NCBI GenBank assembly: GCA_037441285.1
Contig: JBBISL010000005.1
Coordinates: forward strand, 28,869 to 92,868
Reading direction: 5' to 3'
Length of the DNA: 64,000 nucleotides
From: a candidate division WOR-3 bacterium
Lineage (GTDB): Bacteria; Hydrothermota; Tepidihabitantia; Tepidihabitantales; Tepidihabitantaceae
The notes below the pieces were generated by a model. The model did not search any database and was not told the origin of the DNA. It worked only from the letters and a program-made list of their open reading frames with translations. This document shows, one piece after another, positions 15,553 through 30,696 of this stretch (its first letter is position 1; each line of letters starts with the position of its first letter). A program made the translations under genes and the position numbers.

Positions 15553-15687
15553 GGGGTATTTAGCTGAAAGTAACAGCAAAATTTAGAAGAAGATTGCTTA
15601 TAATTTAATGCCATGGGGGCGGTAATTGACTTTCTCGAGTTAATATCAATAATTAAACTGAAGGCAAATAACTTGAAAGGAGTGTTT

Positions 15688-16281
15688 ATGACAACCGCAG
15701 GGAATATCATATACCGCACCAGTGTTGGTGTGGTTTTTGTTGCATTGCTTGCCGGGTGCGTCGCTACCCCAGCGATGAGGAAGGCGATGCAGCCTTATTC
15801 GATTTCGGCACAGTTTGACCTTTCTAAGCCGTGGCGGATTGCAGTGTTGCCGGTTCAACTGACCGGTGATTCCGATAATGAGATGAGTACCGATTTGGTG
15901 GAACGGGCTCAGATGCAGTTGATGAAGGTTTTAAACTTTTCGGTTGTTGACCGGAGTGCGGTGGAGGCGGTTTTGAAGGAGCAGGAGTTTTCTTACTCCG
16001 GGTTAGTTGACCCCGAGACCGCCGCCCGTTTGGGAAAGTTGATGGGTGCTTCAGCGGTGCTGTTGATTAAGGTGGGACAGGTAAAGCACGACCCGTTTTT
16101 CTCCGACTCACCAAACCAAAGGGATGCACAGTTGAATGTACGCATCATCGGGGTTGAGACCGGTGAGGTTTTGTATTCGGCGCAGGGGCAGGGTTCCAGT
16201 TTTGAAGGACCGGAAGAAGCACTGGCGAGCGCGCTGGATGTTGCGCTACTGCCTTTGCTGGAAAAAGGAGGTGTTAAATGA
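15688..16281 (+). CDS. Lipoprotein with LpoB / TolB-N / CsgG-like fold
   Basis: RBS GAAAGGAG precedes the ATG at 15688. Lipobox LLAGC. Core RIAVLPVQLTGDSDNEMSTDLVERAQMQLMKVLNFSVVDRSAVEAVLKEQEFSYSGLVDPETAARLGKLMGASAVLLIKVGQV fits the LpoB/TolB-N pattern. Confidence 0.5.
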   Translation: MTTAGNIIYRTSVGVVFVALLAGCVATPAMRKAMQPYSISAQFDLSKPWRIAVLPVQLTGDSDNEMSTDLVERAQMQLMKVLNFSVVDRSAVEAVLKEQEFSYSGLVDPETAARLGKLMGASAVLLIKVGQVKHDPFFSDSPNQRDAQLNVRIIGVETGEVLYSAQGQGSSFEGPEEALASALDVALLPLLEKGGVK

Positions 16282-17261
16282 AAACGGTCGGTTTTTTGCT
16301 CTTGACGATTGTCCTTTTTGTCTCCTGTGTAAGTTCTGGTGTCGGTGTACGGAATGCAGGTACCGCCCAAATGCCAACCGAGGCGCCGGCAAGTGGACCA
16401 GTACAGATGCCCCCGATGCCGCGCGAGACAAGCGAGGTTGTGCCCCTGCCCGTGGAGGAGATTGTTTCTCCGGGTGAGGTGGTGGAGCCGGTGCCAGGTG
16501 GAGTTATTGATTGGGGTGCTAAGGTGGTGCGAGCGCGCGGTTCGGGCGTTGTTGACCCCGGAGACCCAAATCCGGCGCGTGCCCGGTTGATGGCAGAGCG
16601 CGCCGCGGTGGTTGTTGCCCAGCGCAACCTCCTCGAGATTATCAAAGGGGTGCGGGTTGATTCTGACACCAAGGTGGAGAACTTCGTTACGAAATTTGAT
16701 GTGATTTACACCCATCTTGAAGGGATAGTTAAAGGGGCGCGCCAGGTAGGGCCGGCGCGGTTCGATTCGGCGAGTGGTGTGGTTGAGGTGGAACTTGAGG
16801 TCAACCTTACCGGTCCCCAGAGTGTAAGCGATGCGCTGGAGCCAGCGATTTTGCAACCCGGAGGGGCGGTGCCGGAAGTTCAAGCATCAGCAAGCGTCCG
16901 GGAGTTTTTGCAGAAGTATTCGGCGCTGGTTTTTGACGCCGGGAACAGCGGCTTAAAGCCGGCGCTTTTCCCGAAGATTTACGACGAAGCGGGCAACCTG
17001 CTTCTTGATACAAAAGAACTGTATCAGTACACCGGAACAACGGGCCAGAAGGTGGTTCATTATATCGGGAAACTGGATGAGATTCTTTCCCGTCCCGAGT
17101 TTGCCAACCAGCCCTTAGTTTTGAAGATTAAACAGGTCCGGGGTAAGATGGGTGCGGATATTGTCCTGAGTAAAGAGGATGCGGATAAACTTAAGTGGCT
17201 TAAAGATGGTGCTCGTTTCCTGTTTGATGCCGGCCGGTTTCTCATAAAACTTCTTCTGTAA
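16278..17261 (+). CDS. LPP20/FlgP-family-like lipoprotein
   Basis: Lipobox LFVSC, followed by a Pro-rich linker. Segment ARARLMAERAAVVVAQRNLLEIIKGVRVDSDTKVEN matches the LPP20 core. It overlaps its neighbour by 4 nt. Confidence 0.5.
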   Translation: MKTVGFLLLTIVLFVSCVSSGVGVRNAGTAQMPTEAPASGPVQMPPMPRETSEVVPLPVEEIVSPGEVVEPVPGGVIDWGAKVVRARGSGVVDPGDPNPARARLMAERAAVVVAQRNLLEIIKGVRVDSDTKVENFVTKFDVIYTHLEGIVKGARQVGPARFDSASGVVEVELEVNLTGPQSVSDALEPAILQPGGAVPEVQASASVREFLQKYSALVFDAGNSGLKPALFPKIYDEAGNLLLDTKELYQYTGTTGQKVVHYIGKLDEILSRPEFANQPLVLKIKQVRGKMGADIVLSKEDADKLKWLKDGARFLFDAGRFLIKLLL

Positions 17262-17262
17262 G

Positions 17263-18477
17263 GTGGCGGAAATGGCGAATGGGAAAAGACTAATACTGTT
17301 TTTCGGGCTTTTTTGTTTGTCCTGTTACTACCCCGGATACAGTCCGACACCGGTTCAAACCCAGACGACTGAGGTTGTGCTGAGCGGTGGTGAAGGAACT
17401 GAAATTCTCGCCGAAGGCGTGGCAGCAATTACCGGCGATGTAGCGATGGCGCGGGACCAGGCATTGAAGGATGCCCTGCGTAAGGCGGTAGAGCAAGGGG
17501 TGGGTACTTTTATCAACTCCGAGACCCGGGTTGAGAACTTTCAGTTGCTCTCGGACCGGATATACTCCCAGGTGCAGGGTTATGTTTCTTCTTATCGGTT
17601 GATTAGTGAATCAAGGGAGGCTGGTCTTTATCGGGTCGTGGTGCGGGCAAAGGTGAAACTGGAGCGGATTGAGGACGACCTGAGGGCGATTGGGATTTTG
17701 ATTGCCGAACAGGGGAGGCCCAGGGTGATGGTGGTGGTGCGAAAGGTGGCAAATCCGGTTGCAGTTACAATCAGTGCAGAGACGATGGCACCGGAATTGG
17801 TGGAAACGATGTTGACCGCAGCGTTTCAGGAAAAAGGTTTTCCGGTAGTTGACCGGGCAACCGTGGAGAAAAATCTGGACCGGGAGCGGTTGCGCAAGAT
17901 TCTCGAAGGAGATACGCAAGCAGCAATGCTTTTAGGGACTGCCACGGGCGCGGAAATCGGGGTGGTGGGAACTTTGCAGGAGACGATGGCGCGAAAAAAG
18001 GTTCCTTATACTCAGGAGGAACGAGATTATCACCGCATTGAGTTAAGTGCGCGAGCAATTAACCTGAGCAGCGGTGAGGTCCTTGGTGCCGGCGTGGTAA
18101 ATGCCGAGGCGCCGTTCAGTGCCGAAGCGGCAAGGCGGGTGGCGGCAGACTCAATTAGCCGAATTTTGATTTCCCGCATCCTTTCCGGCTGGAAGCGGCG
18201 GGAGAATGTTACTTTGATTTACGCCCGTAATGCGGATTTCCAGAAAGTAGAGATTTTTAAGTCCGAGGTGCGAGCAAAAGTGCGAGGGGTGAGTGCGGTA
18301 CTTACCAGGGAGTTGAGCGGCAGTGATGCGGTGATTGAGATTGTGTCCGAGACGGCAACACCCGAGGTCATCGAGCAGATTAGTAGCCGGGAAATGGCGG
18401 TTCGGTTTCAGATTGAGGGCATTGCGGGGAACCGGATTGACATCAGGTTTTTGGAAGAAACCGAGCGGCAGAATTAG
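17263..18477 (+). CDS. Multidomain envelope protein: LPP20-like N-domain + LpoB/TolB-N-like middle domain + C-domain (FlgT-like size)
   Basis: Signal peptide present. AMARDQALKDALRKAVEQGVGTFINSETRVENF is LPP20-like. PRVMVVVRKV...ELVETMLTAAFQEKGFPVVDRATVEKNLDRERL...GAEIGVVGTL is LpoB/TolB-N-like. Confidence 0.5.
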   Translation: MAEMANGKRLILFFGLFCLSCYYPGYSPTPVQTQTTEVVLSGGEGTEILAEGVAAITGDVAMARDQALKDALRKAVEQGVGTFINSETRVENFQLLSDRIYSQVQGYVSSYRLISESREAGLYRVVVRAKVKLERIEDDLRAIGILIAEQGRPRVMVVVRKVANPVAVTISAETMAPELVETMLTAAFQEKGFPVVDRATVEKNLDRERLRKILEGDTQAAMLLGTATGAEIGVVGTLQETMARKKVPYTQEERDYHRIELSARAINLSSGEVLGAGVVNAEAPFSAEAARRVAADSISRILISRILSGWKRRENVTLIYARNADFQKVEIFKSEVRAKVRGVSAVLTRELSGSDAVIEIVSETATPEVIEQISSREMAVRFQIEGIAGNRIDIRFLEETERQN

Positions 18478-18582
18478 CAGGTATCAACGGTAATTAATCT
18501 GCTTTTTTGAAATCGGCAGCGGGCGCTTTACTTTGACAGGGTGCAATTGAAAGGTAAAATTCCGTTAAGAAAGGAGATGAAG

Positions 18583-19128
18583 ATGCGGATAAAAACAGGT
18601 ATTTTCGCAGTTATAATACTTTGTTTTGGGTTGAGTATCGCCAGTGAGACTGATACACTTAAACCGTCTGCGGTATTTATTCATCCTGACGCCCGGGGTA
18701 AACTGCCGATAATTGGGAATGTGGCGGTGGCACTCAGCGGGGTTGACGAGCAGAGCACCCGATTGCTGGAAGATGCGCTGGCGCTACTTTTGCTTGCTGA
18801 GAGCGTCAAGGTGGTTTATCCTTCGGACAAGGATGTCGGTAAAATGCGCGCCCAACTGCCCGAACCGATTGAATGGGCGAAGAAACAGGGTGTGAATTGC
18901 CTTTTGACCGGAACCGTGGTGGCACGATGCACCCATTGTGCTCACGGTAAGTCGCGCTGCTCAAATGAAGGGATAAGGGCGGTTTCGTTTACCCTGGTGG
19001 ATGTGCCTGAGGACAAGATGCTCCTCTGGGCGCTTTATGAACCAACAAATACCGTGACCCCGACCGATTTTGCCCGGTCGTTTATCGGTTTAATAAAAGA
19101 AAACCTTAAAGAGGAGGAGAAAAAATGA
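18583..19128 (+). CDS. LpoB/TolB-N-like secreted protein
   Basis: Own promoter TTGACA-16-TAAAAT (18533-18560). AAGGAG lies 7 nt before the ATG at 18583. Signal peptide present. GNVAVALSGVDEQSTRLLEDALALLLLAESVKVV...QGVNCLLTGTVV fits the LpoB pattern. Confidence 0.5.
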   Translation: MRIKTGIFAVIILCFGLSIASETDTLKPSAVFIHPDARGKLPIIGNVAVALSGVDEQSTRLLEDALALLLLAESVKVVYPSDKDVGKMRAQLPEPIEWAKKQGVNCLLTGTVVARCTHCAHGKSRCSNEGIRAVSFTLVDVPEDKMLLWALYEPTNTVTPTDFARSFIGLIKENLKEEEKK

Positions 19129-19697
19129 AACGGCTGGCTTTTCTGGCGCCGGTGCTTTTATTCTTTGCCTGCGCCACATCTCATTATGTCCGTCCCGATG
19201 AGGTAACCGAATGGGACTACACTTATAGCGATACCGATATGAAGCTTCTTGCCGAAAAGATGGTGCAGTCACTGGCAGAGTTAAACCTGCCAGCACGGTC
19301 CGACACCGGCAAACCGGTACTGGCTTTTCTTGCCATTGGCAACCGGACCTCCCAGCACATCGACACCGAAGGGATTGCGGAGAAGATTATGGTGGCGCTG
19401 GTAAAACTGGGGAAGTTCCGGATTGTGGACCGAGAACTGTTGAAACAGCAGGCAAAGGAGATTGCGCTCCAGGAGACGCAACGGATTGATGTTGAGGGGG
19501 CGGTAAAACTGGGAAACCTCATCGGTGCCGACTACTTCCTTACCGGGGATGTGATGAGCATTGAGAAGACCAAGGGCGCGACAACGCTCGCCTATTACAA
19601 ACTGACGATGCGGCTGGTTAATGTCCGGACTTCAGAAATCGTCTGGGCGGATGAACAGGAACTGAAGAAGAAGAGCACCAAGTCCTGGTACGAGTAA
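19125..19697 (+). CDS. Penicillin-binding-protein activator LpoB homolog (lipoprotein)
   Basis: PVLAFLAIGNRTSQHIDTEGIAEKIMVALVKLGKFRIVDRELL...GAVKLGNLIGADYFLTGDV...YKLTMRLVNVRTSEIVW aligns motif-for-motif with the E. coli LpoB globular domain (VDSVNNRT...GKF.LVS...GAHYVLYSS...LQMQLMLVQTGEIIW). Confidence 0.6.
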   Translation: MKRLAFLAPVLLFFACATSHYVRPDEVTEWDYTYSDTDMKLLAEKMVQSLAELNLPARSDTGKPVLAFLAIGNRTSQHIDTEGIAEKIMVALVKLGKFRIVDRELLKQQAKEIALQETQRIDVEGAVKLGNLIGADYFLTGDVMSIEKTKGATTLAYYKLTMRLVNVRTSEIVWADEQELKKKSTKSWYE

Positions 19698-19704
19698 ACG
19701 GCTA

Positions 19705-20853
19705 ATGAGCCGAGCGGGCGTCCTTTTACTCCTGGGCGCGCTGTTTTTTATAACCTGCGTGCCGGTTGCGCCCACCGTACCATCAGCACCCACGCCCCGC
19801 TACTTCTCAAACCTCTCCTATGAAAATGCGATTGAACGGTATCGAAAAGTTGTTGAAGAGAAGTTTCAAAAGCAGGACCTTTCCTACATCCTTTCCCTTT
19901 TGAGTTACGGGATTACCAACTTTTACGGCGGAAAGCAGGCGGATGCCAAACGGGCGTTTCTCGCGGCGTACAAAGTTGATGCCGGTGAGCGTCCTGAGGC
20001 GGCAAAGCTTTATGACTGGTTGGTGGTGGATTCGAGAACAGTTTACAAATTGAAGAAGCGCGAGCGGGAACTGGTCCACTTATATCTCGGGCTGTGTTAT
20101 CTTTTTGAAAATAACCTTGAGGAGGCGCTGGTGGAGTTTAAAAAACTGCGCCAGTTTGACCAGGATGCTTCCACCCTCCCGATTGTCAACTTTTATACCG
20201 GACTGTTGTACGAGAAGATGGAGAAGTTTGATGATGCGCTGATTGAGTTCCGACAACTCGAAACACTCGGTATCAAAGGCTTGGTACGAAATGTTGAACT
20301 GATGCGGGACAGCGGTTATATCCTTGCCGGCGATTCAATTGAACTGGTGGTCCAGGTGGAGCATCAAACGGTTGGTTCAATCGGAAGAACAGAGGTATAT
20401 GCGGACAGTTCCCTTTTAGTGACGGTTCTACCTGAGGTGAGCGACAGTTTTGCGGTACGGTTAAGCCGAGCCGAGGCGAATCGTAAAGCAGCACAGGAGG
20501 CGGGTGCCAAAGCAGCGCGTATCGGGCTGCGGGTTTTATCGGCGGTGCTTCTGGAAAAGGCGTTGCCCGGTATCGGGGAAGAACTGGCGGACAATATCGC
20601 TGATATCACATTGGGCAAGGAGGAAGAGAATCGGGACATCCGTGCCTGGGGTTATGCACCATTAAACTTCGCCTTTGCCCGGATGCGGATTCCCAAGTCA
20701 ACCAGCAAGGCGCGGCTGGTGTTTTACAACCGGGCAGGCAGTATGCTGGGCTACTGTGACTATCCGCTCCGGGGCGAAAATAGCCGGGCGGCTTATGCGG
20801 CGGGGATGTTTTTCATCGTCGCCGGTCTGGCTGAGGAGTTTTATGTGTATTAA
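19705..20853 (+). CDS. Lipoprotein with helical/TPR-like repeats
   Basis: Lipobox FFITC. Helical repeat character (LYLGLCYLFENNLEEALVEFKKL..., YTGLLYEKMEKFDDALIEFRQL). No specific family recognised. Confidence 0.4.
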   Translation: MSRAGVLLLLGALFFITCVPVAPTVPSAPTPRYFSNLSYENAIERYRKVVEEKFQKQDLSYILSLLSYGITNFYGGKQADAKRAFLAAYKVDAGERPEAAKLYDWLVVDSRTVYKLKKRERELVHLYLGLCYLFENNLEEALVEFKKLRQFDQDASTLPIVNFYTGLLYEKMEKFDDALIEFRQLETLGIKGLVRNVELMRDSGYILAGDSIELVVQVEHQTVGSIGRTEVYADSSLLVTVLPEVSDSFAVRLSRAEANRKAAQEAGAKAARIGLRVLSAVLLEKALPGIGEELADNIADITLGKEEENRDIRAWGYAPLNFAFARMRIPKSTSKARLVFYNRAGSMLGYCDYPLRGENSRAAYAAGMFFIVAGLAEEFYVY

Positions 20854-20866
20854 AAAGGAGGTTAGA

Positions 20867-21280
20867 ATGAAGAGATTCTGGGCAGCAGCAGGCGGTCTGA
20901 TGCTAATCCTTGCCTGTTCAACCACGATTAACTCCCTCTGGATTAACCGGGAGACCGAAAGCCGGCGCTGGGTAATCAACAACCCGGTTCTGGCATCAGA
21001 CATCCGGGTGCTGGATGTAAAAGAAGAGGAGAGTGGCGGCGCGTTGATTGTCAATGTCCTGTTGAAGAATGGCTGGCATATGCCAATTGGTGGTAAGGTC
21101 AAGATGCTTTTTTACGACCAGAATGGCGTGCAACTTGATGACCCCTGGGGCTGGCATCAAATCAACCTCGAATCCAATCAGGAGCAGTGGGTGAAGTTCG
21201 TGGCACCAAAGCCCGCGGACCAGATTTCCAAGATGAAACTGATGATTCGGGGAATCAACCGCTACTCCTCTTCAGGCTAA
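20867..21280 (+). CDS. Small (138 aa) lipoprotein, possibly YcfL/DUF1425-like
   Basis: AAGGAGG lies 6 nt before the ATG at 20867. Lipobox MLILAC. The size and the position next to LpoB-like genes recall the E. coli ycfL-lpoB pairing. This is the weakest assignment in the block. Confidence 0.4.
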   Translation: MKRFWAAAGGLMLILACSTTINSLWINRETESRRWVINNPVLASDIRVLDVKEEESGGALIVNVLLKNGWHMPIGGKVKMLFYDQNGVQLDDPWGWHQINLESNQEQWVKFVAPKPADQISKMKLMIRGINRYSSSG

Positions 21281-21363
21281 GCGAGAACTTTCTTTGACCG
21301 GGATGTAATACAAACGCGAGAGCGTTAAAATTTCTGAATATTAGAGGATGTTAGTTAGGCATT

Positions 21364-22365
21364 TTGATGCTCTTATTTATTGCGCTTATCAGCGGTATTA
21401 TTGAGTTCCACGGCCAGGCAATTGGGCAAATCGGCATCAGTGATTCGTTAAGCCATTGCTCCGTAAATATGGAGGGGGAATACCGACCCAGAGTTGAGTA
21501 TGAATCTGTAACACCAACACGCAGACTTGACTTTGTGGCATCGGTGCGGGCGGCCATCGGCAGCGTAATTCATTCCAAGAACACCAGTTGCCGTGCGGAG
21601 ATAGACCTCTATCGGCTGTTTTTAAGTTATGGCAGTGAGCGTTATGAGGTACGCCTTGGTCTGCAGCAGATTAACTTCGGCTCGGCGATGATTTTACGAC
21701 CCTTGCGCTGGTTTGACCGAATTGACCCGCGCGACCCGCTTCAGACTACGGCGGGTGTTTACGGTGTGCTTTACCGGTGCTATTCGGGCAACGACAATGC
21801 CTGGTTCTGGGGGCTTATTGGTAATTCAAAACCCAAAGGGCTGGAGACAACCCCAACCCCGAAATGGTTTCCTGAGGCGGGTGCCCGGCTGGAAAAGGCT
21901 TTGTCGGGCGGTGAGATGGCAGGCAGTTTCCATCATCGCTGGACGGTTGTTGAGGGTGATACGGTACTGGAAGACAAGTTTGGTCTTGATGGTCGCTGGG
22001 ACATAGGTCCTGGTGTCTGGTTTGAAGGGACGCTGGTGCATACGGGTAAGCGGTGGCAAGGGCAAATAATGGGGGGTGTGGACCATACCTTTGGAATCGG
22101 CAACGGGTTGACCGTCCTTCTGGAACATATGATAACCAGTAATCATACAAACGGGCAAAATCTCTCAGCGCTGTCTTTAACCTATCCACTCGGGCTCAAC
22201 GACAACCTGAGTCAGTTGACATTCTTTGACTGGCAGGAGCACAAGCCCTATATTTATCTGGCTTGGCAGCATACGCTGGATAACTGGCAGTTCCTTATCG
22301 CCGGTTATTTCAATGCGGCGGGAAAGACGAGCGGGATAGTCAGTCGGGTATTTTTTAACCATTGA
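21364..22365 (+). CDS. Hypothetical outer-membrane beta-barrel-like protein upstream of the ABC/LolA-like module
   Basis: Aromatic-rich alternating pattern with a C-terminal aromatic residue. No family recognised. Confidence 0.3.
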   Translation: MMLLFIALISGIIEFHGQAIGQIGISDSLSHCSVNMEGEYRPRVEYESVTPTRRLDFVASVRAAIGSVIHSKNTSCRAEIDLYRLFLSYGSERYEVRLGLQQINFGSAMILRPLRWFDRIDPRDPLQTTAGVYGVLYRCYSGNDNAWFWGLIGNSKPKGLETTPTPKWFPEAGARLEKALSGGEMAGSFHHRWTVVEGDTVLEDKFGLDGRWDIGPGVWFEGTLVHTGKRWQGQIMGGVDHTFGIGNGLTVLLEHMITSNHTNGQNLSALSLTYPLGLNDNLSQLTFFDWQEHKPYIYLAWQHTLDNWQFLIAGYFNAAGKTSGIVSRVFFNH

Positions 22366-22371
22366 CAGGAG

Positions 22372-23079
22372 TTGAAGATGAATGACCGCCAGGTTATTAT
22401 CGAGACGATTAATCTAATAAAGCGTTATCCGATGGGACGGCAGGAACTGGTGGCACTCAAAGGGGTAAGTTTGAAGTTTTACCGCGGGGAGTTCAGTGGT
22501 GTTATCGGTCCTTCAGGTTCGGGCAAGACCACCCTGCTTAATATCATTGGAACCCTGGATGCGCCCAGTGCCGGTTCGGTCCTGGTGCTGAATGAGCGGG
22601 GGGAATCGCTTTCCCCGCAGCGGGCAGCGGAACTGCGCAGCCGGCATATTGGCTTTATCTTTCAGACCTTTAATCTTCTGCCGGTTTATACCGTTTACGA
22701 AAATGTTGAGTTCCCGCTTTTGCTCTTAAAAATACCGGCAAAAGAGCGAAGCAAAAAGGTGATGGCGGCGCTGGAATGGGTTGGGCTGGCAGACCGCGCA
22801 AACTCAAAACCTTCCCAGCTGTCGGGCGGTGAATGTCAAAGGGTGGCGATTGCCCGGGCGGTGGTAAAAGAGCCAGCGCTCATCCTTGCCGATGAGCCAA
22901 CCGCCAACCTTGATGCCGAGAACTCATATCATATTCTCACAACAATGGTAAAACTCAACCGAGAACTGGGTACGACATTTATCTTTTCCACCCACGACGA
23001 AAAGGTAATTAAGTTTTTGCGGCGTCGCATTAAACTGGTTGATGGTGCGGTGGTGGCAGATGAGGAGGTAAAAGGGTGA
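22372..23079 (+). CDS. ABC transporter ATP-binding protein (LolD/MacB/FtsE type)
   Basis: Walker A GPSGSGKTT, signature LSGGECQRVAIARA and Walker B ILADEPT. Size and order match LolD-like proteins. Confidence 0.85.
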   Translation: MKMNDRQVIIETINLIKRYPMGRQELVALKGVSLKFYRGEFSGVIGPSGSGKTTLLNIIGTLDAPSAGSVLVLNERGESLSPQRAAELRSRHIGFIFQTFNLLPVYTVYENVEFPLLLLKIPAKERSKKVMAALEWVGLADRANSKPSQLSGGECQRVAIARAVVKEPALILADEPTANLDAENSYHILTTMVKLNRELGTTFIFSTHDEKVIKFLRRRIKLVDGAVVADEEVKG

Positions 23080-24245
23080 GTGCGATTAAACTGGCGTTGC
23101 GCAACCTGCGCGGAGCAGGGATTAGAACCTGGCTCAATGGTTTTGCCCTGTCCCTGGCGTTTGTTGCGATTATCTTTGGTCAGGGGCTATTAGCAGGGGT
23201 AAACCGTCAGGCAGAAAGGTCATCAATAGATTTTGAGTTCGGGGGCGGACAGTTTTGGTGTGAAGGTTTTGACCCCTATGACCCGTTGACATTGGAGCAG
23301 TCACACCGGGTGCTACCAGATACGCTTGCGCAACTGGTAGAATCCGGTCAGGCGGTAGCGATTCTGGTTGTTCCCGGGACGGTTTTTGTTCAGGGAAGGA
23401 TGGTACCGGTACTGCTCAAGGGGATTTCAACGCCGCAGACCGTTTTGAAGATTCCGACACAAGTACTGATTGACTCAACCGGTGATTTACCGGTTTTGTT
23501 AGGGGCGCAAATGGCAAAGAAGTTGAATGTCAAGGTGGATGATTACCCGACACTGCAGTGGCGGGACAAAGAGGGCGCATTTGACGCCCGGGAGGTTCGG
23601 GTCGCAGGAATAATGCAGACAAGTGTCGGGACAATTGACCAGGGTCAGGTGTGGCTGCCCTTAAACCAGCTTGAGAATTTGACCGGGTTGGAAAGGCAGG
23701 CAACAGTCGTGGTTCTGAAACCCGGTGTGAAAGCGCCGCCCGTTGTTGAAGGCTGGGAGTTTCGCACTGCCGAATTTCTTCTTTCTGATTTGCGGCAGAT
23801 GATAAAGACAAAGACCGTGGGTCAGTCGATTATGTTTGTCGTGCTATTTCTTCTGGCACTCTTAGCGATATTTGACACCCAGGTGTTTTCTATTTTCCGC
23901 CGGCGCCGGGAGATTGGCACGCTCATCGCGCTGGGAATGACGCGCGGTGCGGTGATTGCGATGTTCACCTTTGAGGGTGCGATGTACGGGGTGCTGGCAG
24001 CGCTGTTGGGTGCGATTTACGGTACGCCGCTGTTCCTTTATCTAAGTGCCTATGGGCTGGCAATGCCGGGTGGAAATCAGTGGGGGTTTGCGCTTGAAGA
24101 GCGAATGTATCCGGCATGGACTGCAGGGTTGATTGTCGGCACAACGATACTGGTTCTGATTACCGCAACCGTTGTGTCGTATCTGCCAACCCGGCGCATC
24201 TTGAAACTGAAGCCAACCGACGCTCTCCGGGGAAAATGGGTATGA
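23076..24245 (+). CDS. FtsX/MacB-LolC-type ABC permease
   Basis: N-terminal TM, a large periplasmic domain and three C-terminal TMs. 4-nt overlap with the ATPase gene. Confidence 0.7.
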   Translation: MSAIKLALRNLRGAGIRTWLNGFALSLAFVAIIFGQGLLAGVNRQAERSSIDFEFGGGQFWCEGFDPYDPLTLEQSHRVLPDTLAQLVESGQAVAILVVPGTVFVQGRMVPVLLKGISTPQTVLKIPTQVLIDSTGDLPVLLGAQMAKKLNVKVDDYPTLQWRDKEGAFDAREVRVAGIMQTSVGTIDQGQVWLPLNQLENLTGLERQATVVVLKPGVKAPPVVEGWEFRTAEFLLSDLRQMIKTKTVGQSIMFVVLFLLALLAIFDTQVFSIFRRRREIGTLIALGMTRGAVIAMFTFEGAMYGVLAALLGAIYGTPLFLYLSAYGLAMPGGNQWGFALEERMYPAWTAGLIVGTTILVLITATVVSYLPTRRILKLKPTDALRGKWV

Positions 24246-25513
24246 CCGGTTTCATTATCAAAGGGCTGGTGCGGGATCGCAGTCGCAGCCTTTTCCCATT
24301 TCTGACGGTTGCGATTGGTGTTGCGCTGGTGGTATTTCTGGACGCCTATTTGCGCGGGACAGAGGACAGCGTTTTTGATACCACCGCCCGACTGGTGACG
24401 GGTCATTTGATGGTAACGACCCGGGCACAGGCGCAGGAAGGTGAAGCCGGTTCTCTGGAGACGGCGCTGTTCGGAGTCAAGGGTTTAAAGGCGGAGTTGA
24501 AAAGCAGGCATCCGGATATCATCTGGACCGAGCGCATCCGGTTCAGCGGCATACTTGATGTGCCCGATTCGCTGGGCGTGACCCGGGCACAGGTACCAAT
24601 TACCGGTTTGGCGGTTGACCTGACACCGGGCTCGGTTGAGCATCAACTTCTCCAGTTGGAGAAGGCGCTGGTGCGGGGCAGGATTCCGGAAGAGAGCCGC
24701 GAGATTTTGCTCAGCGAGGAGTTGTGTCAGCGGCTGGGAATTTCGCCGGGTGCGCGCCTTACCCTGATATCAATGACCGCAGAAGGCGGTATGGCAATTG
24801 CCGACTTCACGCTTGCGGGCACGGTGCGGTTTGGTGTTACCGCTTTAGACCGCAGTATGGTTATTGGCAAATTAGAAGGGGTGCAGGAGGCGCTCGGGCT
24901 GGAAGACGGTGCGAGTGAAATTGTGGGATTTTTTACGGACGGGGTTTATGACGACCGGCGCGCGGGGCAAATCGCCCGGGAGTACAACGCCGGTTTAAGC
25001 AGGATTGAAGACGAGTTTGCACCGATGATGCGGTCTTTACGGGAGGCAAGCGATTTGGGTTCACTTATTGACATCGTTTCGGGCGCTACCGGCTTAATAA
25101 CCCTGATATTCATTGTCGCGATGGCGGTGGTACTCTGGAATGCGGGATTGATGGGTTCACTCCGGCGTTACGGTGAGATTGGCATCCGGTTGGCGCTCGG
25201 TGAGTCCAAACCGGCGCTTTACCTTTCGCTTCTTGCCGAGGCGTTTTTTATCGGGCTGGTCGGTTCGGTTGCGGGCACGCTGGTCGGACTGGTGCCGGCG
25301 TATTATCTACAGAAGGTCGGGCTCAACATCGGCGGGATGATGAAAAATACCACGGTAGTAATAAGTGAGGTGCTGCGCGCCCGGATTGCACCGGCAAGTT
25401 TCTTTGTCGGATTCCTGCCCGGGTTGATGGCGACCTTTCTGGGCAGGGCGATTTCCGGGCTGGGAATTTTCCGGCGTTCAACCGCCCGGCTGGCAAAGGA
25501 GTTTTCCGAATGA
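24236..25513 (+). CDS. Second FtsX/MacB-LolE-type ABC permease
   Basis: Same topology as 23076-24245. The ATG at 24236 overlaps the preceding stop. Confidence 0.7.
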   Translation: MGMTGFIIKGLVRDRSRSLFPFLTVAIGVALVVFLDAYLRGTEDSVFDTTARLVTGHLMVTTRAQAQEGEAGSLETALFGVKGLKAELKSRHPDIIWTERIRFSGILDVPDSLGVTRAQVPITGLAVDLTPGSVEHQLLQLEKALVRGRIPEESREILLSEELCQRLGISPGARLTLISMTAEGGMAIADFTLAGTVRFGVTALDRSMVIGKLEGVQEALGLEDGASEIVGFFTDGVYDDRRAGQIAREYNAGLSRIEDEFAPMMRSLREASDLGSLIDIVSGATGLITLIFIVAMAVVLWNAGLMGSLRRYGEIGIRLALGESKPALYLSLLAEAFFIGLVGSVAGTLVGLVPAYYLQKVGLNIGGMMKNTTVVISEVLRARIAPASFFVGFLPGLMATFLGRAISGLGIFRRSTARLAKEFSE

Positions 25514-26229
25514 GCACAATTCTGGCTCTGCTACTGTTTTTTACCGGAGAACTGCCCAATGGTGATACGCTCCTTGTCCGAATTGATGAAAACATCTTTG
25601 TTAGGAGCCGGATGGTTGTTGCCAGTATGCGCATCACCGGCAGAAGGGGCATGCGGACCGTGCGCATCCGTTCTTATAGCCGGGGTGACAGCGCCTTTGT
25701 TGAGTATCTGGCACCGGAACGGGAAAGGGGCACCAAGATGCTGAAGTTAGGGCGTGACCTCTGGATTTACACACCAGAATCGGACCGGACAATCCGTATC
25801 TCCGGTCATATGTTGCGCCAGTCGGTAGCGGGTTCGGATTTGTCTTATGAAGATATGATGGAGGAGCCGCGTTTGAGTCAGATTTACAGCGCGGTTACAA
25901 CGGGCAGCGATTCAATCGATTCCAGACCGGTCTGGGTCTTAGAACTCAACGCCCGGAAACCGGATGTTGCCTATCCAAAACGAAGAATCTGGGTGGACCG
26001 CGAAAGGTTGATTGTGCTCAAAGAGGAACGGTTTTCCAAGAGTGGTAAGCCGTTAAAAAGAGCCGAGGTGCTTGAAACAAAATGGATTGACAGCCGCTGG
26101 CTCGCAACCCGGGTGGTTTTCCGCGACCTGTTGAAAACCGGAGCCGGCACCGAATTTGTCATTGAAGAGATGCATCAGGACATTTCAATTCCGCCCGCGC
26201 TTTTCACTAAGGCGTCATTGCGGCGGTAG
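25510..26229 (+). CDS. LolA-like outer-membrane lipoprotein-sorting protein
   Basis: Signal peptide present. KMLKLGRDLWIYTPESDRTIRISGHMLRQSVAGSDLSYEDM resembles the LolA-like family core. It overlaps the permease gene by 4 nt. Confidence 0.5.
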   Translation: MSTILALLLFFTGELPNGDTLLVRIDENIFVRSRMVVASMRITGRRGMRTVRIRSYSRGDSAFVEYLAPERERGTKMLKLGRDLWIYTPESDRTIRISGHMLRQSVAGSDLSYEDMMEEPRLSQIYSAVTTGSDSIDSRPVWVLELNARKPDVAYPKRRIWVDRERLIVLKEERFSKSGKPLKRAEVLETKWIDSRWLATRVVFRDLLKTGAGTEFVIEEMHQDISIPPALFTKASLRR

Positions 26230-26231
26230 GG

Positions 26232-26954
26232 TCAGACCGAACGCAGATACCCGGAAAATGATTTCGGATTTTCGACGGTTTTACCCGCTGTTCGGCTGAA
26301 TGCGCCCGGTCCGAACCCGATAACAGGCTTGTTGCCGGCTAAGGCGATAAGATGGTGGTTTTCTTTGCCGGGTAAGGCAAAGTGTCCGGGTAAAAACTGG
26401 TTATATTCACTGGTTAGTTTTTCGGTCAATTTGGGTTGGGCTGATTCTGGGTAAAATGTGATATGGTCGGGTTTGAGCGTAAGGATGCGGTTAAAGGCTG
26501 TTTCCGGAATTGCGACGGGCAGTTCAAATCCAACCGAGAAGAAGCCAGCATCTTGCAGGATGAGGAAGTCGTTTTCGGGCAGGGTTTGGGTATCAGGTTT
26601 GAGCCGTAATGTCATCTGGTCAAATCCAGATTCGCGCAGGACCTTTGCCCGTGCCAAATCCACGGTGTCGGGTAAAACGACGAATGTCTGTTCTTCAGGC
26701 TGGATTACAAGGTGGTCGTAAAGCGCCTGTAAAATCCGGTACAACTGGTCAAGGGTAAGGCAGGATGGTCCACAGCCACCAAAGTAGATGGTGGTAAAGG
26801 TGTGTTTGCGCTGGGTTTTGCTCCGGGAGCGAATTTCCCGAATAAGGGCGGTGACGAATTTTTCAGCGGTTTCCGGGTTATAAGGCAAGGGCTGGGTGCC
26901 AAATCGCCAGTCCGGTTCACTGCCAAACGGAACGGTGACGGTGATGCCGGACAA
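26232..26954 (-). CDS. HemW/HemN-like radical-SAM fold protein lacking the CxxxCxxC cluster cysteines (degenerate)
   Basis: TTG start 4 nt after the lepB stop. ITVTVPFGSEPDWRFGT-(~35 aa)-TIYFGGCGPSCL aligns to HemW LYIHIPFCxxxCxYCxF-(~35)-tIffGGGTPSlL with identical spacing, but with G, D and F at the three Cys positions. The track N-terminal 79 aa lie in another frame inside lepB and are discarded. Confidence 0.45.
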   Translation of the reverse strand: MSGITVTVPFGSEPDWRFGTQPLPYNPETAEKFVTALIREIRSRSKTQRKHTFTTIYFGGCGPSCLTLDQLYRILQALYDHLVIQPEEQTFVVLPDTVDLARAKVLRESGFDQMTLRLKPDTQTLPENDFLILQDAGFFSVGFELPVAIPETAFNRILTLKPDHITFYPESAQPKLTEKLTSEYNQFLPGHFALPGKENHHLIALAGNKPVIGFGPGAFSRTAGKTVENPKSFSGYLRSV

Positions 26955-26958
26955 GGGT

Positions 26959-27783
26959 TTAACGGACCAGTCTGCCAATCCGATTGAATCGGATTGCCCA
27001 GGGTGAGATGATGATGCGGGCGATGTTGGGTGCGGCACTGGAGGAGAAGTACAAAACGAGCGGTTTTCCCCGGAGATAACGCAGGGGAAGCGGTCCCCAG
27101 AAGCGGGAGTCTTCGGAGTTGTCCCGGTTGTCACCCATCGCAAAGATGTGTCCTTCGGGTACAACCACCGGACCAAAGTTGTCCCGAACATAGGGGGAAA
27201 GTTCCGAGCGGTAAAAACTACGGTTTTCCCAGAGGTGCTGGAAGTCGGGTTTCAACTCCTGTGGCAAAGGAGGCAGGGTGTAGTAGAACTTGTGGACCGC
27301 GTAGGGCGCAACCACTTTTTTACCGTTGATAAACAGTTCTTTGTTGCGTACTTCAACGGTGTCACCGGCAACCGCAACGCACCTTTTGACAAAGTTGCGC
27401 GGGGTGTACCAGGTGAAGAAGTTGGTCTGTTTATCCCAGAACAAAGGCAGTAGCGGTAACCAGGATGGGAAGATGCGAGCATAGCGGTTGGGGTGCAGGG
27501 AGTCAACCGGCATATCCGGGTCAACCGGAAACCGGAAGATGACGATGTCCCCGCGCTTCGGGCTGGAAATGGGGATAAGGGTGCGGTCGGTGAAAGGGAT
27601 TTTGACCCCATAGACGAATTTGTTGACGAGCATAAAGTCGCCGACCAAAATGGTGTCTTCCATTGAGCCGGTGGGTACCATAAACGCCTCAACAAGAAAG
27701 GAGCGAATGAGAAGGACGGCGATGATAACCGGGGTCCACTCGCGAAAGAACCGCTTTACACCGCTGCCAAATCCATCAGCCAT
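26959..27783 (-). CDS. lepB: Signal peptidase I
   Basis: N-terminal TM, then GSMEDTI (catalytic Ser box), KRGDIVIF and GDNRDNSEDSRFWG boxes. Confidence 0.85.
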   Translation of the reverse strand: MADGFGSGVKRFFREWTPVIIAVLLIRSFLVEAFMVPTGSMEDTILVGDFMLVNKFVYGVKIPFTDRTLIPISSPKRGDIVIFRFPVDPDMPVDSLHPNRYARIFPSWLPLLPLFWDKQTNFFTWYTPRNFVKRCVAVAGDTVEVRNKELFINGKKVVAPYAVHKFYYTLPPLPQELKPDFQHLWENRSFYRSELSPYVRDNFGPVVVPEGHIFAMGDNRDNSEDSRFWGPLPLRYLRGKPLVLYFSSSAAPNIARIIISPWAIRFNRIGRLVR

Positions 27784-27891
27784 AACAGGTTAGTTTAGAG
27801 AAGGGTAAGGTAAAGTCAAGCATCAGGGGAATAAGTAATGGTGTTCAACCATCACTGTTGACCCGGAGATGGATAAGGATAGAATAAATCT

Positions 27892-28875
27892 GTGAAGGTT
27901 AAAGCGGTCTCGTTACTATCAGGCGGGCTGGACTCCATCCTTGCCTGCCGGGTGATACTGGACCAAGGGGTTCAGGTTTTTGGCTTAAACTTTGTCAGTC
28001 CGTTTTGCACCTGTACGAAAAAGGGGTGTCGGCATGAGGCGCGCCGCGCTGCGGAGCAACTCGGGATTCCTTTGAAGGTGGTGGCAAAGGGTGAAGAGTA
28101 CATCCAGATGATAAAGAAGCCCCGGCACGGTTACGGCTCGGCAATGAACCCGTGCATCGACTGCCGGATTTTTACCTTTGCGCGGGCAAAGGAGTATATG
28201 GAGGAGATTGGCGCCCAGTTTGTGTTCACGGGTGAGGTTTTAGGCGAAAGGCCTATGTCCCAGCATCTGCAGGCGTTGAAGTTGATTGAACGGGAGTCCG
28301 GGCTGCAGGGCAGGGTTTTGCGGCCGCTCTCGGCAAAACTGCTGGAGCCCACAGTCCCGGAAATTGAAGGTTGGGTTGACCGGCAGAAACTGCTCGCGAT
28401 TCAGGGACGGTCGCGCAAGCCCCAGATTGCGCTTGCTGCCCATTACGGTATCAAAGATTATCCCTGTCCTGCGGGTGGTTGCCTTTTAACCGATAAAAAC
28501 TTTGCCCAGCGGCTGAAAGATGCGTTTGCCCATAATGAAGACAGTCTGCGTGATATGAATCTGTTAAAGGTGGGCAGGCACTTCCGGCTGCCTTCCCGCC
28601 GAAAGGTGGTTGTGGGCAGAAATGAGATGGAGAACAGGGTGCTCACCAATCTAATTGATGCCAATGATGTTGTGATTGAGCCGGTTGATGTTGCGGGACC
28701 GGTGGTGGTTGTCTGGCAGGGAGGTGATGATAAAGATGTTGAGGTTGCTGCCCGGCTTTGCGCCCGGTACTCGGACGGCAAAAGCCTGCCCCGCTTAAAG
28801 GTGCGGGCTGGTAGACGGGTTTTTGAGGTGGCACCGCTTGAAGAGGAAGCGACCCAGGCGTTGCGGGTCGGCTGA
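27892..28875 (+). CDS. PP-loop ATP pyrophosphatase, ThiI-like AANH domain (tRNA sulfurtransferase-like)
   Basis: SLLSGGLDS PP-loop. TGEVLGERPMSQHLQALKLIE...RVLRPL matches the ThiI catalytic-domain pattern. Cysteine pairs NPCIDC and YPCPAGGC. Confidence 0.5.
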   Translation: MKVKAVSLLSGGLDSILACRVILDQGVQVFGLNFVSPFCTCTKKGCRHEARRAAEQLGIPLKVVAKGEEYIQMIKKPRHGYGSAMNPCIDCRIFTFARAKEYMEEIGAQFVFTGEVLGERPMSQHLQALKLIERESGLQGRVLRPLSAKLLEPTVPEIEGWVDRQKLLAIQGRSRKPQIALAAHYGIKDYPCPAGGCLLTDKNFAQRLKDAFAHNEDSLRDMNLLKVGRHFRLPSRRKVVVGRNEMENRVLTNLIDANDVVIEPVDVAGPVVVVWQGGDDKDVEVAARLCARYSDGKSLPRLKVRAGRRVFEVAPLEEEATQALRVG

Positions 28876-28906
28876 TTCAGGCTGCCAATTAAGACATCTG
28901 CATATA

Positions 28907-28934
28907 TTGCAAGGGGTTAGAGATTTGGTATAAT
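28907..28934 (+). promoter_or_regulatory. Sigma70 promoter TTGCAA-16-TATAAT giving a leaderless transcript for 28942
   Basis: Perfect TATAAT at 28929-28934 lies 7 nt before the ATG at 28942. No SD is present. Confidence 0.45.
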
Positions 28935-28941
28935 TTATTAG

Positions 28942-29493
28942 ATGAGGGCGGTCCAGTTTAGTGTTGTCAGTTTCCCTAAATTACAACAGGATAAGGAACT
29001 TTTGCGATTGCGGGAGCGGTTTGCGCCCGGGATATTTCAACTGGAGCCGCACATTCCGGTGGTTTTGCCCTGGGTGCCGGTTGCGTTGGGTGATGTGGTT
29101 ACAATGGTAAACTGTTTGAGTGAGACCCGAAGGAAGTTACACCCCATTGCGATTGTGTGCGACAACTGGCACCGCCAGGGTGAACTCCTGCTTGGTGATG
29201 TAACCCAGGGACAGGAGGCGGTGCTGGAGTTGAGAAAAAGTATCACCGGTATCGAGCCGGTCCCTTTAATAAATGATGAAGCGTCCCGGGGTGTGTATCT
29301 TGTGGTTTGCCGGGTTCCAGAAGAGGAGAAATGGGATTCTCTACTTAAAGAGGTGCAAACTGTGGGCAGAAGTTTAGGGGTGGTTGATTCGGTGGTGCTG
29401 CTCCGCACCCTGCCGGACGGTTCGTGGCAGCGGGTGGCAAACTTTCCTTTTGGTGTCGGCAGGGTCGATTTTTACGAGCAACTGGTGGGATAA
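28942..29493 (+). CDS. Hypothetical protein (183 aa)
   Basis: Leaderless ATG. No family recognised. There is a weak resemblance to 2H-phosphoesterase-size proteins, but the motifs are not convincing. Confidence 0.35.
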   Translation: MRAVQFSVVSFPKLQQDKELLRLRERFAPGIFQLEPHIPVVLPWVPVALGDVVTMVNCLSETRRKLHPIAIVCDNWHRQGELLLGDVTQGQEAVLELRKSITGIEPVPLINDEASRGVYLVVCRVPEEEKWDSLLKEVQTVGRSLGVVDSVVLLRTLPDGSWQRVANFPFGVGRVDFYEQLVG

Positions 29494-29661
29494 AGACCAA
29501 ACTGTTTTGTTCCAGAAAAGCCAATTCTGAACACAAAAGTCCAGCGTCCGTAATTTCCTAACACAACAACTCGTTGACAATTAGTTACTTACAATCTTGG
29601 CACACCGGTTGTAATTATATCGGGTGATGGCAAGTAGAATTAAAAAAACAGGAGGTCAAAA

Positions 29662-30549
29662 ATGAAGAAACTGCTTGCGTTCGTTATAATCGGAACCCTG
29701 GTCGGCATTGGATTTGCCGGCACCGGCGGTATCGCGGGAAGGGTATTCAATGTCGCTACCGGTCAGCCTGTCGTCAATGCGATTGTTACCGCTTGCGGCG
29801 ACAGTACGCCCGCAGGCAGGGCGGTGACCAATGAACAGGGCGAGTACCTGATAGAAGGTTTAGATGCAGGGAGTTATCAGGTGATAGCCCGAGCAAGGGG
29901 TTTTGTTCCGGCTCACGCTCCGATTCTGGTGGTGGTGCGGGAGGGCAGTATCACCCGGGGTGTTGATTTGCGGTTAAGGCCCTTGCCCAGACGCACTGGA
30001 GCGATTAGCGGTAGAGTTGTAGACCGTGTCACCCGGGAGCCTTTGCGGGGTGCGGTGGTGATTGTGCGCAATCCGTTGGGCACCCGTCGGGCACGAACCG
30101 ACCGTAACGGTTACTACATCATTCGCGGATTGGTTCCGGGAAGGTATCAGGTGGCGGCAAAGGCACGGCGCTACTTTGGTGAGGCGTATCCCCAGCCGGT
30201 TGAGGTAATTCAGGGCGTGGTTACAGAATATATAAACTTTGCCCTGCAACCCAAGCCCCGGCGTGGTGGAATTTCCGGTCAGGTGGTTAATGCGAAGACG
30301 GGCAGGCCCATCGCTGGAGTTCTGATTACCGTTCAGGGTTTGCAGGGTAACGGTTTTGCCCGGACCGATGGCCATGGGTTTTACCGGATTGTGGGTCTTG
30401 AGCCCGGTCGGTATACGGTTTCGGCGACTAAGCCCGGTTATCAGGCGGCGACATATCCCGAGCCGGTTGAGGTCAATCCCGGTGAGTTAACCCGGGGCAT
30501 TGACTTCCGGCTGCGACCGTTGCGTGATAATCAGATTGACAGCGACTGA
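29662..30549 (+). CDS. Secreted protein with three tandem carboxypeptidase-regulatory-like (CarbopepD_reg/Cna-B-like) domains
   Basis: Signal peptide present. Three ~95-aa repeats of the form G-RV-D-x-TG-PL-GA-V-(..)-T-x-NG-Y-I-GL-PG-Y-V-A-x-GY-(..)-PV-V-x-G-x-T-x-x-F-LRPL. Confidence 0.6.
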   Translation: MKKLLAFVIIGTLVGIGFAGTGGIAGRVFNVATGQPVVNAIVTACGDSTPAGRAVTNEQGEYLIEGLDAGSYQVIARARGFVPAHAPILVVVREGSITRGVDLRLRPLPRRTGAISGRVVDRVTREPLRGAVVIVRNPLGTRRARTDRNGYYIIRGLVPGRYQVAAKARRYFGEAYPQPVEVIQGVVTEYINFALQPKPRRGGISGQVVNAKTGRPIAGVLITVQGLQGNGFARTDGHGFYRIVGLEPGRYTVSATKPGYQAATYPEPVEVNPGELTRGIDFRLRPLRDNQIDSD

Positions 30550-30569
30550 ACCCGTTCCGGATTTTAATC

Positions 30570-30612
30570 ATTACCCTCTGGTGCGATGCCACCAGAGGGT
30601 AATCTTTTTGTT
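30570..30612 (+). terminator. Rho-independent terminator
   Basis: Perfect 14-bp stem ATTACCCTCTGGTG / CACCAGAGGGTAAT with a 6-nt loop, followed by CTTTTTGTT. Confidence 0.6.
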
Positions 30613-30696
30613 GACAAAATCTCCTACGGTTTTATGCTTTAATGACAAATCGGGTTACATCCCAGGATAATTTTAATAAGTTGCCAAGGAGGTGTC

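Follow-up and report, generated by a model that had tools for sequence, protein, structure and literature searches.

The question raised by this locus is what an exporter engine of the Lol and MacB kind does in one gene cluster with a LolA-like protein and an outer-membrane barrel, directly behind a block of seven lipoprotein genes. The cluster, a five-gene cassette, occupies positions 21364-26229 on the + strand of a 64,000-nucleotide (nt) stretch of DNA from a candidate division WOR-3 bacterium (GenBank assembly GCA_037441285.1, contig JBBISL010000005.1, positions 28,869 to 92,868), referred to below as the window. The original prediction, made from the letters of the window alone, had offered two answers: a dedicated trafficking or extrusion route for the adjoining lipoproteins, or a MacAB-like surface export system lacking the membrane-fusion protein. 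Our analysis leads us to regard the cassette, with somewhat better than even confidence, as an accessory exporter powered by an ATP-binding cassette (ABC) transporter, which would move hydrophobic or amphiphilic cargo, i.e. a small lipophilic molecule or a lipid, across the entire envelope without a membrane-fusion protein. All protein families involved except that of the barrel were already annotated, and the combination of an exporter, a LolA-superfamily protein and a barrel has already been published for RND/MMPL systems and, in silico, for Borrelia; new here are the ABC-driven five-gene cassette, of which we found no description in the literature, and the barrel family. The cassette and the spacer in front of it consist of the following elements:

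21281-21363, + strand: AT-rich spacer from the stop of a DUF1425/YcfL-like gene (21280) to the barrel gene
21364-22365, + strand: outer-membrane 18-stranded beta-barrel of an unnamed family, a candidate remote DUF1302 relative
22372-23079, + strand: ABC ATPase of the LolD/MacB/FtsE clade, by ABC_tran match and motifs
23076-24245, + strand: FtsX/MacB-type permease 1 with four transmembrane (TM) segments and a periplasmic domain of ~210 amino acids (aa), by FtsX match and hydropathy
24236-25513, + strand: FtsX/MacB-type permease 2 with four TM segments and a periplasmic domain of ~250 aa, by FtsX match and hydropathy
25510-26229, + strand: soluble periplasmic protein of the LolA superfamily, by Pfam match to PF17131 (LolA_like, alias TP_0789-like), called the carrier below

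The five genes are co-directional and tightly packed, with a 6-nt gap between the barrel and the ATPase gene and successive overlaps of 4, 10 and 4 nt thereafter, as the original prediction had described them; the gene identities that it had assigned, including the putative outer-membrane barrel, are right as well. For the barrel gene, ATG 21367 is the probable start, because the database copy of the protein has 332 aa, and the ATPase gene probably starts at ATG 22378, behind an AGGAG, while the orthologues of permease 2 with their ~424 aa are consistent with a start at 24236. A consensus scan of the spacer, covering promoters of the sigma-70 type and intrinsic terminators, found neither of the two, and Rfam and tRNA scans of the window gave no matches. 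Among the scanned open reading frames (ORFs) of at least 230 aa in the window, there was no membrane-fusion protein, MacA-like or other, as had been predicted, and no TolC-type protein, PF03548 LolA or TetR.

The ATPase matches ABC_tran with an E-value of 2.4e-34, and its Walker A, LSGGE signature, LILADE and H-loop motifs are intact. Its best NCBIfam model is LolD (TIGR02211) with 228.9 bits, which is below the equivalog cut-off of 307.75, followed by FtsE, DarD and MacB with 203.8, 193.8 and 181.8 bits, respectively. Both permeases carry an FtsX domain (59.8 bits for permease 1 and 45.4 bits for permease 2 at a cut-off of 25.5), and hydropathy shows for each of them four TM segments with the 210-250 aa of the periplasmic domain between TM1 and TM2. 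The fold of this domain is presumed, since MacB_PCD stays below its cut-off of 27 bits in both proteins (25.1 bits in permease 1 and 17 bits in permease 2). The best sequence match among PDB entries is LolE for permease 1 (E 2.6e-5) and MacB for permease 2 (E 1.3e-3), and the two permeases are barely alike (~16 bits, phmmer E ~1e-4), which points to an old heterodimer pair. With an FtsX C-terminal domain, four-TM topology and an ATPase of the LolD/MacB/FtsE clade, the cassette has the features of a type VII ABC system, and the LolCDE/MacB-type architecture of the original prediction is borne out. In several Bacteroidota, an extra FtsX permease gene, a duplicate of permease 1, was observed within or just after the cassette (loci L017 11845-14243, L040 15029-16186, L073 12128-14560 and L074 4426-6775).

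The 239-aa product of the last gene had been predicted to be LolA-like, and a profile search confirmed this with a match to PF17131 (E 1.3e-53, 181.9 bits at a cut-off of 30), a family labelled LolA_like and in newer Pfam labels TP_0789-like; PF03548 LolA was not matched at E <= 0.01. A profile built from 31 carrier homologues matches solved structures of the LolA superfamily (9tp6 at 1.6e-55, 4z48 and 3bk5 at 5e-37, and 3buu at 1e-30), and no canonical LolA, LolB or RseB chain is among its matches at E <= 1. The carrier also has a weak match to DUF1329 (E 0.005). Its orthologues have signal peptides of the signal-peptidase-I type, with a lipobox-like motif in only 5 of 65, and as judged from these signals, the carrier is a soluble periplasmic protein that is not lipid-anchored. 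PF17131 proteins in the annotated RefSeq records L088, L089 and L090 sit in TetR/MMPL or FtsX exporter operons together with DUF1302-type barrels. The automatic name of the family, 'outer membrane lipoprotein-sorting protein', like its Gene Ontology terms for lipoprotein transport, is probably a misleading transfer from LolA.

In order to place the cassette relative to Lol, the permeases were scored against the lolCE model TIGR02212. At a cut-off of 362.45 bits, permease 1 reaches 61.4 and permease 2 reaches 20.2 bits, i.e. scores that are ~6- and 18-fold under the cut-off. Together with the LolD score of the ATPase and the family of the carrier, this agrees with the prediction that the module is not canonical Lol: by the models used, the cassette is Lol-like in architecture and fold, not in family membership. 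A second, canonical lolCDE, which the original prediction had proposed to look for, was sought, and a permease/ATPase pair of the Lol type was found on a related WOR-3 contig that also bears the cassette (locus L091, 1-1813). The FtsX permease of this pair, which is not one of the cassette permeases, has 330.5 bits versus lolCE on a 375-aa fragment missing ~25 N-terminal residues, and the adjoining LolD-like ATPase has 264.7 bits versus LolD. The presence of a single permease in this pair suggests that WOR-3 uses a housekeeping system of the LolDF type and, by proxy from this related contig, WOR-3 cassette carriers seem to possess a distinct system that resembles Lol far more closely.

The predicted structure of the barrel is a high-confidence 18-strand channel fold, which in a fold comparison resembles 18-stranded porins, as well as channels such as OprD/Occ and chitoporin, and is unlike TolC; despite this fold, the protein is not a member of the OprD/Occ family by sequence. 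The most conserved segment in the family alignment is INFGSA..LRPL.WFDRIDPRDPLQ, and residues R112, P113, W116, F117, D121, P122, D124 and P125 are invariant. This motif sits in the long loop that joins strands 5 and 6, the sole low-confidence part of the model, which by the usual porin topology would be L3 and fold into the lumen. Pfam and NCBIfam lack a model of the barrel family, and neither the window barrel nor three orthologues matched DUF1302 (PF06980) even at E <= 10. A connection to this family is provided by an operon of Burkholderia in which genes for a PF17131 protein, an ABC ATPase and a fused double-FtsX permease are accompanied by one for a 'hypothetical' protein of 380 aa. This protein aligns with the barrel family over the L3 motif (hhalign 91%, E 9e-7) and comes near the threshold of the Pfam model of DUF1302 over the shared motif (21.2 bits at a cut-off of 23.2), and a direct hhalign comparison of the barrel family with a DUF1302 protein of Prevotella gave a weak match (44%, E 2.4e-4). 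These alignments make the barrel a candidate remote relative of DUF1302. Clustered at 50% identity, the family amounts to ~992 clusters at E <= 1e-3, and 550 of these also reach E <= 1e-30. Two longer, 'fused' barrel proteins, P0271 and P0291, were dropped as evidence of linkage; their N-terminal domains are unrelated (PlsY-like and SPOR), and they look like mergers of gene calls.

The conservation of the cassette was assessed by a combined pattern and tblastn scan of 185,579 representatives, with one genome per species, which yielded at least 578 loci with a barrel homologue. The best 80 of these were compared by searching their six-frame ORFs with phmmer (threshold for lipoprotein homologues E < 1e-4), and gene order was counted in the 67 species loci where the sequence continues for 4.6 kb or more downstream of the barrel gene. 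The order barrel, ATPase, FtsX1, FtsX2 and LolA-like protein is kept in 65 of these 67 loci, from about ten phyla. One of the two exceptions, L026, is a cassette interrupted by N-gaps (scaffold gap); the only genuine one is the WOR-3 locus L020 (9896-17940), in which the barrel gene occurs without the ABC and carrier genes and is followed by ORFs on both strands that bear no relation to the cassette. Among the loci compared, the cassette is concentrated in phyla of the FCB group. It was found in Bacteroidota, Ignavibacteriota, Calditrichota, Zixibacteria, WOR-3, Gemmatimonadota and Acidobacteriota/Aminicenantes, and as single loci in Desulfobacterales, Deferribacteres, Chrysiogenales, Phycisphaerae and Omnitrophica. 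Given the number of species loci among the representatives, its distribution is patchy and accessory. A TetR gene lies directly upstream in ~38 of 76 loci, mostly in Bacteroidota and also in some Aminicenantes and others; these genes are orthologous and often overlap the barrel gene by 4 nt. Apart from this recurrent gene, the flanks outside the five genes are unrelated between loci. None of the 65 complete loci has a membrane-fusion protein or TolC-type duct as part of the cassette. The cassette is a self-contained, autonomous five-gene unit. The possibility that it is cargo of mobile elements or plasmids was rejected, as only 21 plasmid records, mostly large non-mobilisable replicons, contain any relative of PF17131. 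An orthologue is present on a megaplasmid of Persicobacter.

To our knowledge, all characterised ABC systems of the FtsX/MacB type export, extract or transmit force outward, and none imports; because of this, we infer an outward direction for the cassette. The class of its cargo and the hand-over steps that follow are proposals. Two copies of the ATPase would drive the FtsX1/FtsX2 heterodimer by type VII 'mechanotransmission' on the periplasmic side of the inner membrane, and the heterodimer would expel or extract the cargo from the outer leaflet or the periplasmic face of this membrane into the soluble PF17131 carrier. The carrier would shield the cargo while the periplasm is crossed and pass it to the 18-stranded barrel, in which the invariant motif of L3 is likely to provide specificity or gating. 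In this way, the LolA-fold shuttle and the barrel may stand in for the membrane-fusion protein and the TolC of MacAB-type pumps. For about half of the species, the TetR-family repressor encoded directly upstream implies that the cassette is induced by a small ligand.

Several observations weigh against this export model. Among the scanned ORFs of the window, there is no TetR gene, and the inducibility argument is thus not directly applicable to the copy studied here. The gap of 42-86 nt between the lipoprotein block and the cassette in close WOR-3 relatives makes co-transcription of the two possible. The link of the barrel to DUF1302 is remote, as it depends on the Burkholderia intermediate, is weak in the direct comparison and has no counterpart in a Pfam match. 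A single-sequence structure model of the carrier was useless (predicted local distance difference test score of 37), so that its fold assignment rests on sequence homology to solved structures. Finally, the direction is unsettled even for the analogues, since roles in uptake or as esterases have been suggested for DUF1302/DUF1329 pairs too (bioRxiv 10.1101/2020.07.04.188060).

Among the alternatives, the one that survives best is a lipoprotein route resembling Lol, in which the ABC transporter would extract a subset of lipoproteins, perhaps those encoded by the adjoining block, the LolA-fold protein would ferry them, and the barrel would insert them or flip them to the surface. We consider it rather unlikely. 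It draws on the best models of the ATPase and permease 1, which are LolD and LolC/E or LolE, on the membership of the carrier in the LolA superfamily and on the concentration of the cassette in the FCB group, in whose phyla we know of no surface-lipoprotein exporter. For a gene cluster of Borrelia, lipoprotein cargo has been proposed in silico (PMC13078400). A further point is the location of the cassette behind the following block, which, as had been predicted, is co-directional with it:

15613-21280, + strand: seven-gene lipoprotein block, from Pfam searches, ending 83-86 nt before the barrel gene

The products of the block are, in this order, a CsgG/LpoB-like protein, a protein without family match, a FlgT_N protein, another protein without family match, an LpoB-family protein, a TPR protein and the DUF1425/YcfL-like protein, and by eye, the translations of six of the seven show a clear lipobox. 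This combination of LpoB, YcfL and FlgT_N members suggests a complex that is associated with the envelope or with peptidoglycan. The block itself is a conserved unit in WOR-3 and related candidate taxa, e.g. Aegiribacteria and Sabulitectum, with further copies at L085 128-5610, L086 2754-8326 and L092 2879-8456, and its first four genes only were seen in L091 and L093.

In two WOR-3 relatives, L085 and L086, whose barrels are 63% and 51% identical to that of the window, the same block also precedes the cassette, with a gap of 42 nt in L085; in one of the two, the block is separated from the cassette by two FG-GAP genes. The synteny of these loci reaches unrelated genes, as the S26 signal peptidase gene downstream is shared by both, and the genes for ThiI, a CarboxypepD_reg protein and a C25 peptidase are also shared by the closer L085; the adjacency is therefore inherited local gene order. 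None of the seven lipoproteins has a homologue in the 80 other loci compared. In the reverse test, a search outward from the block with the FlgT_N protein revealed the full seven-gene block in L092 and a four-gene sub-block in L093, neither with an adjoining cassette. On contig CBFGKH010000006.1, the sub-block (~18-21 kb, L091) and the cassette (~81.6-86.8 kb, L011) are ~60 kb apart. In the ~9.7-30.9 kb stretch of L091, the genes after the sub-block code for an FG-GAP protein, an S26 signal peptidase and a C25 peptidase, as in positions 15613-33891 of the window minus the cassette, and it follows that the cassette entered or left this neighbourhood in one piece. Block and cassette are thus independent of each other and merely happen to adjoin in one WOR-3 sub-lineage. 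The control by TetR in half of the species, which is typical of small-molecule efflux, the partnership of the same carrier family with MMPL/RND pumps, the low lolCE scores next to a better Lol permease on a cassette-bearing contig, and a carrier outside PF03548 likewise speak against lipoprotein cargo. The predicted dedicated route for the adjoining lipoproteins is thus not supported, with a cassette that is intact in 65 of 67 loci from about ten phyla, none of which has a homologue of the block, and a block that also occurs alone.

Uptake of hydrophobic nutrients, for instance alkanes, fatty esters or terpenes, which the barrel would admit, the LolA-fold protein carry and the ABC transporter deliver to or through the inner membrane, is in our view unlikely. 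AupA and AupB of Marinobacter (DUF1302 and DUF1329) are reportedly an alkane-uptake pair, and the fold of the barrel is similar to that of the substrate-specific uptake channels OprD/Occ and chitoporin. The engine is, however, an ABC transporter of the FtsX/MacB type, for which we know of no importer, the cassette includes no lipid-anchored or classical substrate-binding protein, and no catabolic genes consistently adjoin it in the unrelated flanks of the loci compared. Mutants of Pseudomonas putida in DUF1302/DUF1329 genes lose fitness on fatty esters and Tween 20 (bioRxiv 10.1101/2020.07.04.188060), which is in favour of uptake, and so is the poor growth of an ameB transposon mutant of Castellaniella defragrans on monoterpenes, albeit AmeD, encoded in the same gene set, is presented as an efflux transporter of apolar monoterpenes (PMC6394551).

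A decidedly unlikely variant is that the cassette is a second, regulated lipid-anchor pathway, in which lipidated cargo from the inner membrane, some of the lipoproteins or a lipid-linked molecule, would be ferried by the PF17131 protein and threaded or flipped to the surface via the barrel. If this were true, the cassette would be a candidate for the surface-export step of the FCB group, wired in the WOR-3 lineage to an envelope-lipoprotein operon. As a very improbable explanation, we considered a device without any transport, in which the ABC transporter reshapes the LolA-fold protein and the latter activates a periplasmic enzyme. Complexes of the FtsEX type act by such activation. In addition, the LolA-like lipoprotein GerS is an allosteric amidase activator and not a carrier (bioRxiv 10.1101/2025.01.13.632879). 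The flanks of the compared loci, however, revealed no enzyme gene that is conserved in or beside the cassette, and transport is the better fit for the TetR genes and for a channel-type barrel to which the linkage is near-obligate (65 of 67 loci). That the cassette is the divergent housekeeping Lol system of the organism is hardly credible, since its architecture of an ATPase, two FtsX permeases and a LolA-fold protein would fit, but its distribution is patchy and accessory, the scores for all three curated Lol models are far under the cut-offs, a separate permease/ATPase pair (330.5 and 264.7 bits) is present on a cassette-bearing WOR-3 contig, and Flavobacterium johnsoniae and, by recent reports, Porphyromonas gingivalis have their own LolA/LolB, so that Lol components exist in Bacteroidota, one of the phyla in which the cassette occurs. 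The original prediction had itself named the occurrence of the module in many genomes with unrelated neighbours, together with the lack of any other Lol system in the organism, as a sign that it is simply the housekeeping Lol; the occurrence is as described, and the conclusion is contradicted by lolCE scores of 61 and 20 bits versus 362 and by the second FtsX permease with its 330 bits on a cassette-bearing WOR-3 contig.

The wider neighbourhood of the cassette in the window comprises the following genes:

1127-2194: PorV-like barrel
4339-7095, - strand: second protein with a C-terminal sorting tail of the type IX secretion system
10549-13441, - strand: hybrid-cluster (prismane) protein, ferredoxin-like protein and Rrf2 regulator
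14043-14735: 230-aa protein without family match, just upstream of the lipoprotein block
14701-15552: metallophosphoesterase with an N-terminal lipobox VIFGC (by eye), just upstream of the lipoprotein block
26232-27191, - strand: ORF converging on the cassette, 319 aa as listed, ending 2 nt past the stop of the carrier gene
30697-33891: C25 peptidase with Kelch repeats and a C-terminal sorting domain of the type IX secretion system
38978-40635: ParA/ParB pair

From the sorting domains and the PorV-like barrel, we conclude that the organism possesses a type IX secretion system and hence belongs in or near the FCB group; the top protein matches are to candidate division WOR-3. The hybrid-cluster, ferredoxin-like and Rrf2 genes suggest an anaerobic lifestyle, and the ParA/ParB pair suggests that the window is chromosomal. 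The two ORFs just upstream of the block overlap by 35 nt, and one of their starts is therefore probably miscalled. The ORF converging on the cassette overlaps the S26 peptidase ORF (26959-27783); as its orthologue in L085, which has no family match, has 248 aa, the true gene is probably shorter than listed.

Should the export model hold, many diderm phyla would move greasy molecules across their envelope without a membrane-fusion protein or TolC, and the barrel family with its ~1,000 clusters at 50% identity could gain a name and a link to a function. Culturable carriers of the cassette exist, among them Cyclobacterium qasimii, Lewinella cohaerens, Saccharicrinis aurantiacus, Cerina litoralis, Membranihabitans marinus and Persicobacter, so that the export hypothesis is directly testable.

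Compared to known systems, the cassette shares with LolCDE-LolA-LolB a type VII ABC transporter in which two unlike FtsX-type permeases are paired with a LolD-like ATPase, and a soluble periplasmic partner of LolA fold. It differs in the outer-membrane partner, which is an integral 18-stranded barrel instead of the lipoprotein LolB, in a carrier from another family of the LolA superfamily, in the arrangement of all genes in one cassette and in its accessory distribution. With MacAB-TolC, it has in common permeases of FtsX/MacB-type fold, whose periplasmic domain is large, and the clade of the ATPase, whereas it lacks the membrane-fusion protein and the TolC duct, its ATPase is a separate polypeptide, and its permeases form a heterodimer. 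The suggestion of a MacAB-like system without fusion protein was the closer of the two original readings, and the lack of the fusion protein stands.

The cluster BBJ23-BBJ29 on a Borrelia plasmid, described in silico in 2026, combines a MacB-like ABC transporter and a LolA-like protein with an Omp85 barrel (PMC13078400). It differs from the cassette in the Omp85 family of its barrel, in a homodimeric permease and in extra chaperone-like genes, and a tblastn search of a plasmid collection with the window carrier retrieved no Borrelia plasmid at E <= 1e-5; the cluster is therefore an analogue and not an orthologue. Closer in composition are operons of oral Bacteroidota, i.e. PG1178-PG1181 of P. 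gingivalis, encoding a porin, a 'lipoprotein-sorting protein', an MMPL pump and TetR, which is induced 13-136-fold by limitation of iron or haem (PMC10434189, PMC13096392), and operons of Prevotella intermedia and Prevotella nigrescens, the latter with the genes TetR, ABC, ABC, MMPL, PF17131 and DUF1302. They share with the cassette a PF17131 protein followed by an outer-membrane barrel, as well as the TetR gene found with half of the cassette orthologues. In these operons, an MMPL pump, accompanied in Prevotella by two type-I ABC half-transporters, replaces the FtsX pair, the gene order is different, and limitation of iron or haem has been documented as an inducer. An operon of Haliovirga encodes TetR, MMPL and PF17131.

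AmeABCD of C. defragrans consists of a DUF1302 outer-membrane protein, a DUF1329 protein of the LolA superfamily, AmeC (COG4447) and an RND pump (PMC6394551), and DUF1302/DUF1329 genes of Pseudomonas show cofitness with BNR and RND genes (bioRxiv 10.1101/2020.07.04.188060). AmeABCD and PG1178-PG1181 are the closest analogues of the cassette. Like it, the sets of C. defragrans and Pseudomonas join an exporter of the inner membrane to a LolA-superfamily protein and a barrel of their own without a membrane-fusion protein or TolC, and their cargo is hydrophobic, as we propose for the cassette. They differ from it in their engine, a proton-driven RND pump in place of an ATP-driven heterodimeric ABC transporter of the FtsX/MacB type, and in a third component (BNR-like or of the AmeC type, COG4447) that is absent from the cassette; furthermore, the barrel of the cassette has 333 aa instead of ~600 and fails the DUF1302 model, and its carrier belongs to PF17131 and not to PF07044. 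By analogy across these systems, a carrier with a dedicated barrel may be a recurring theme, the outer half of an export route with varying inner-membrane engines, and if the export model is right, this half would be portable and fit ABC as well as MMPL/RND engines.

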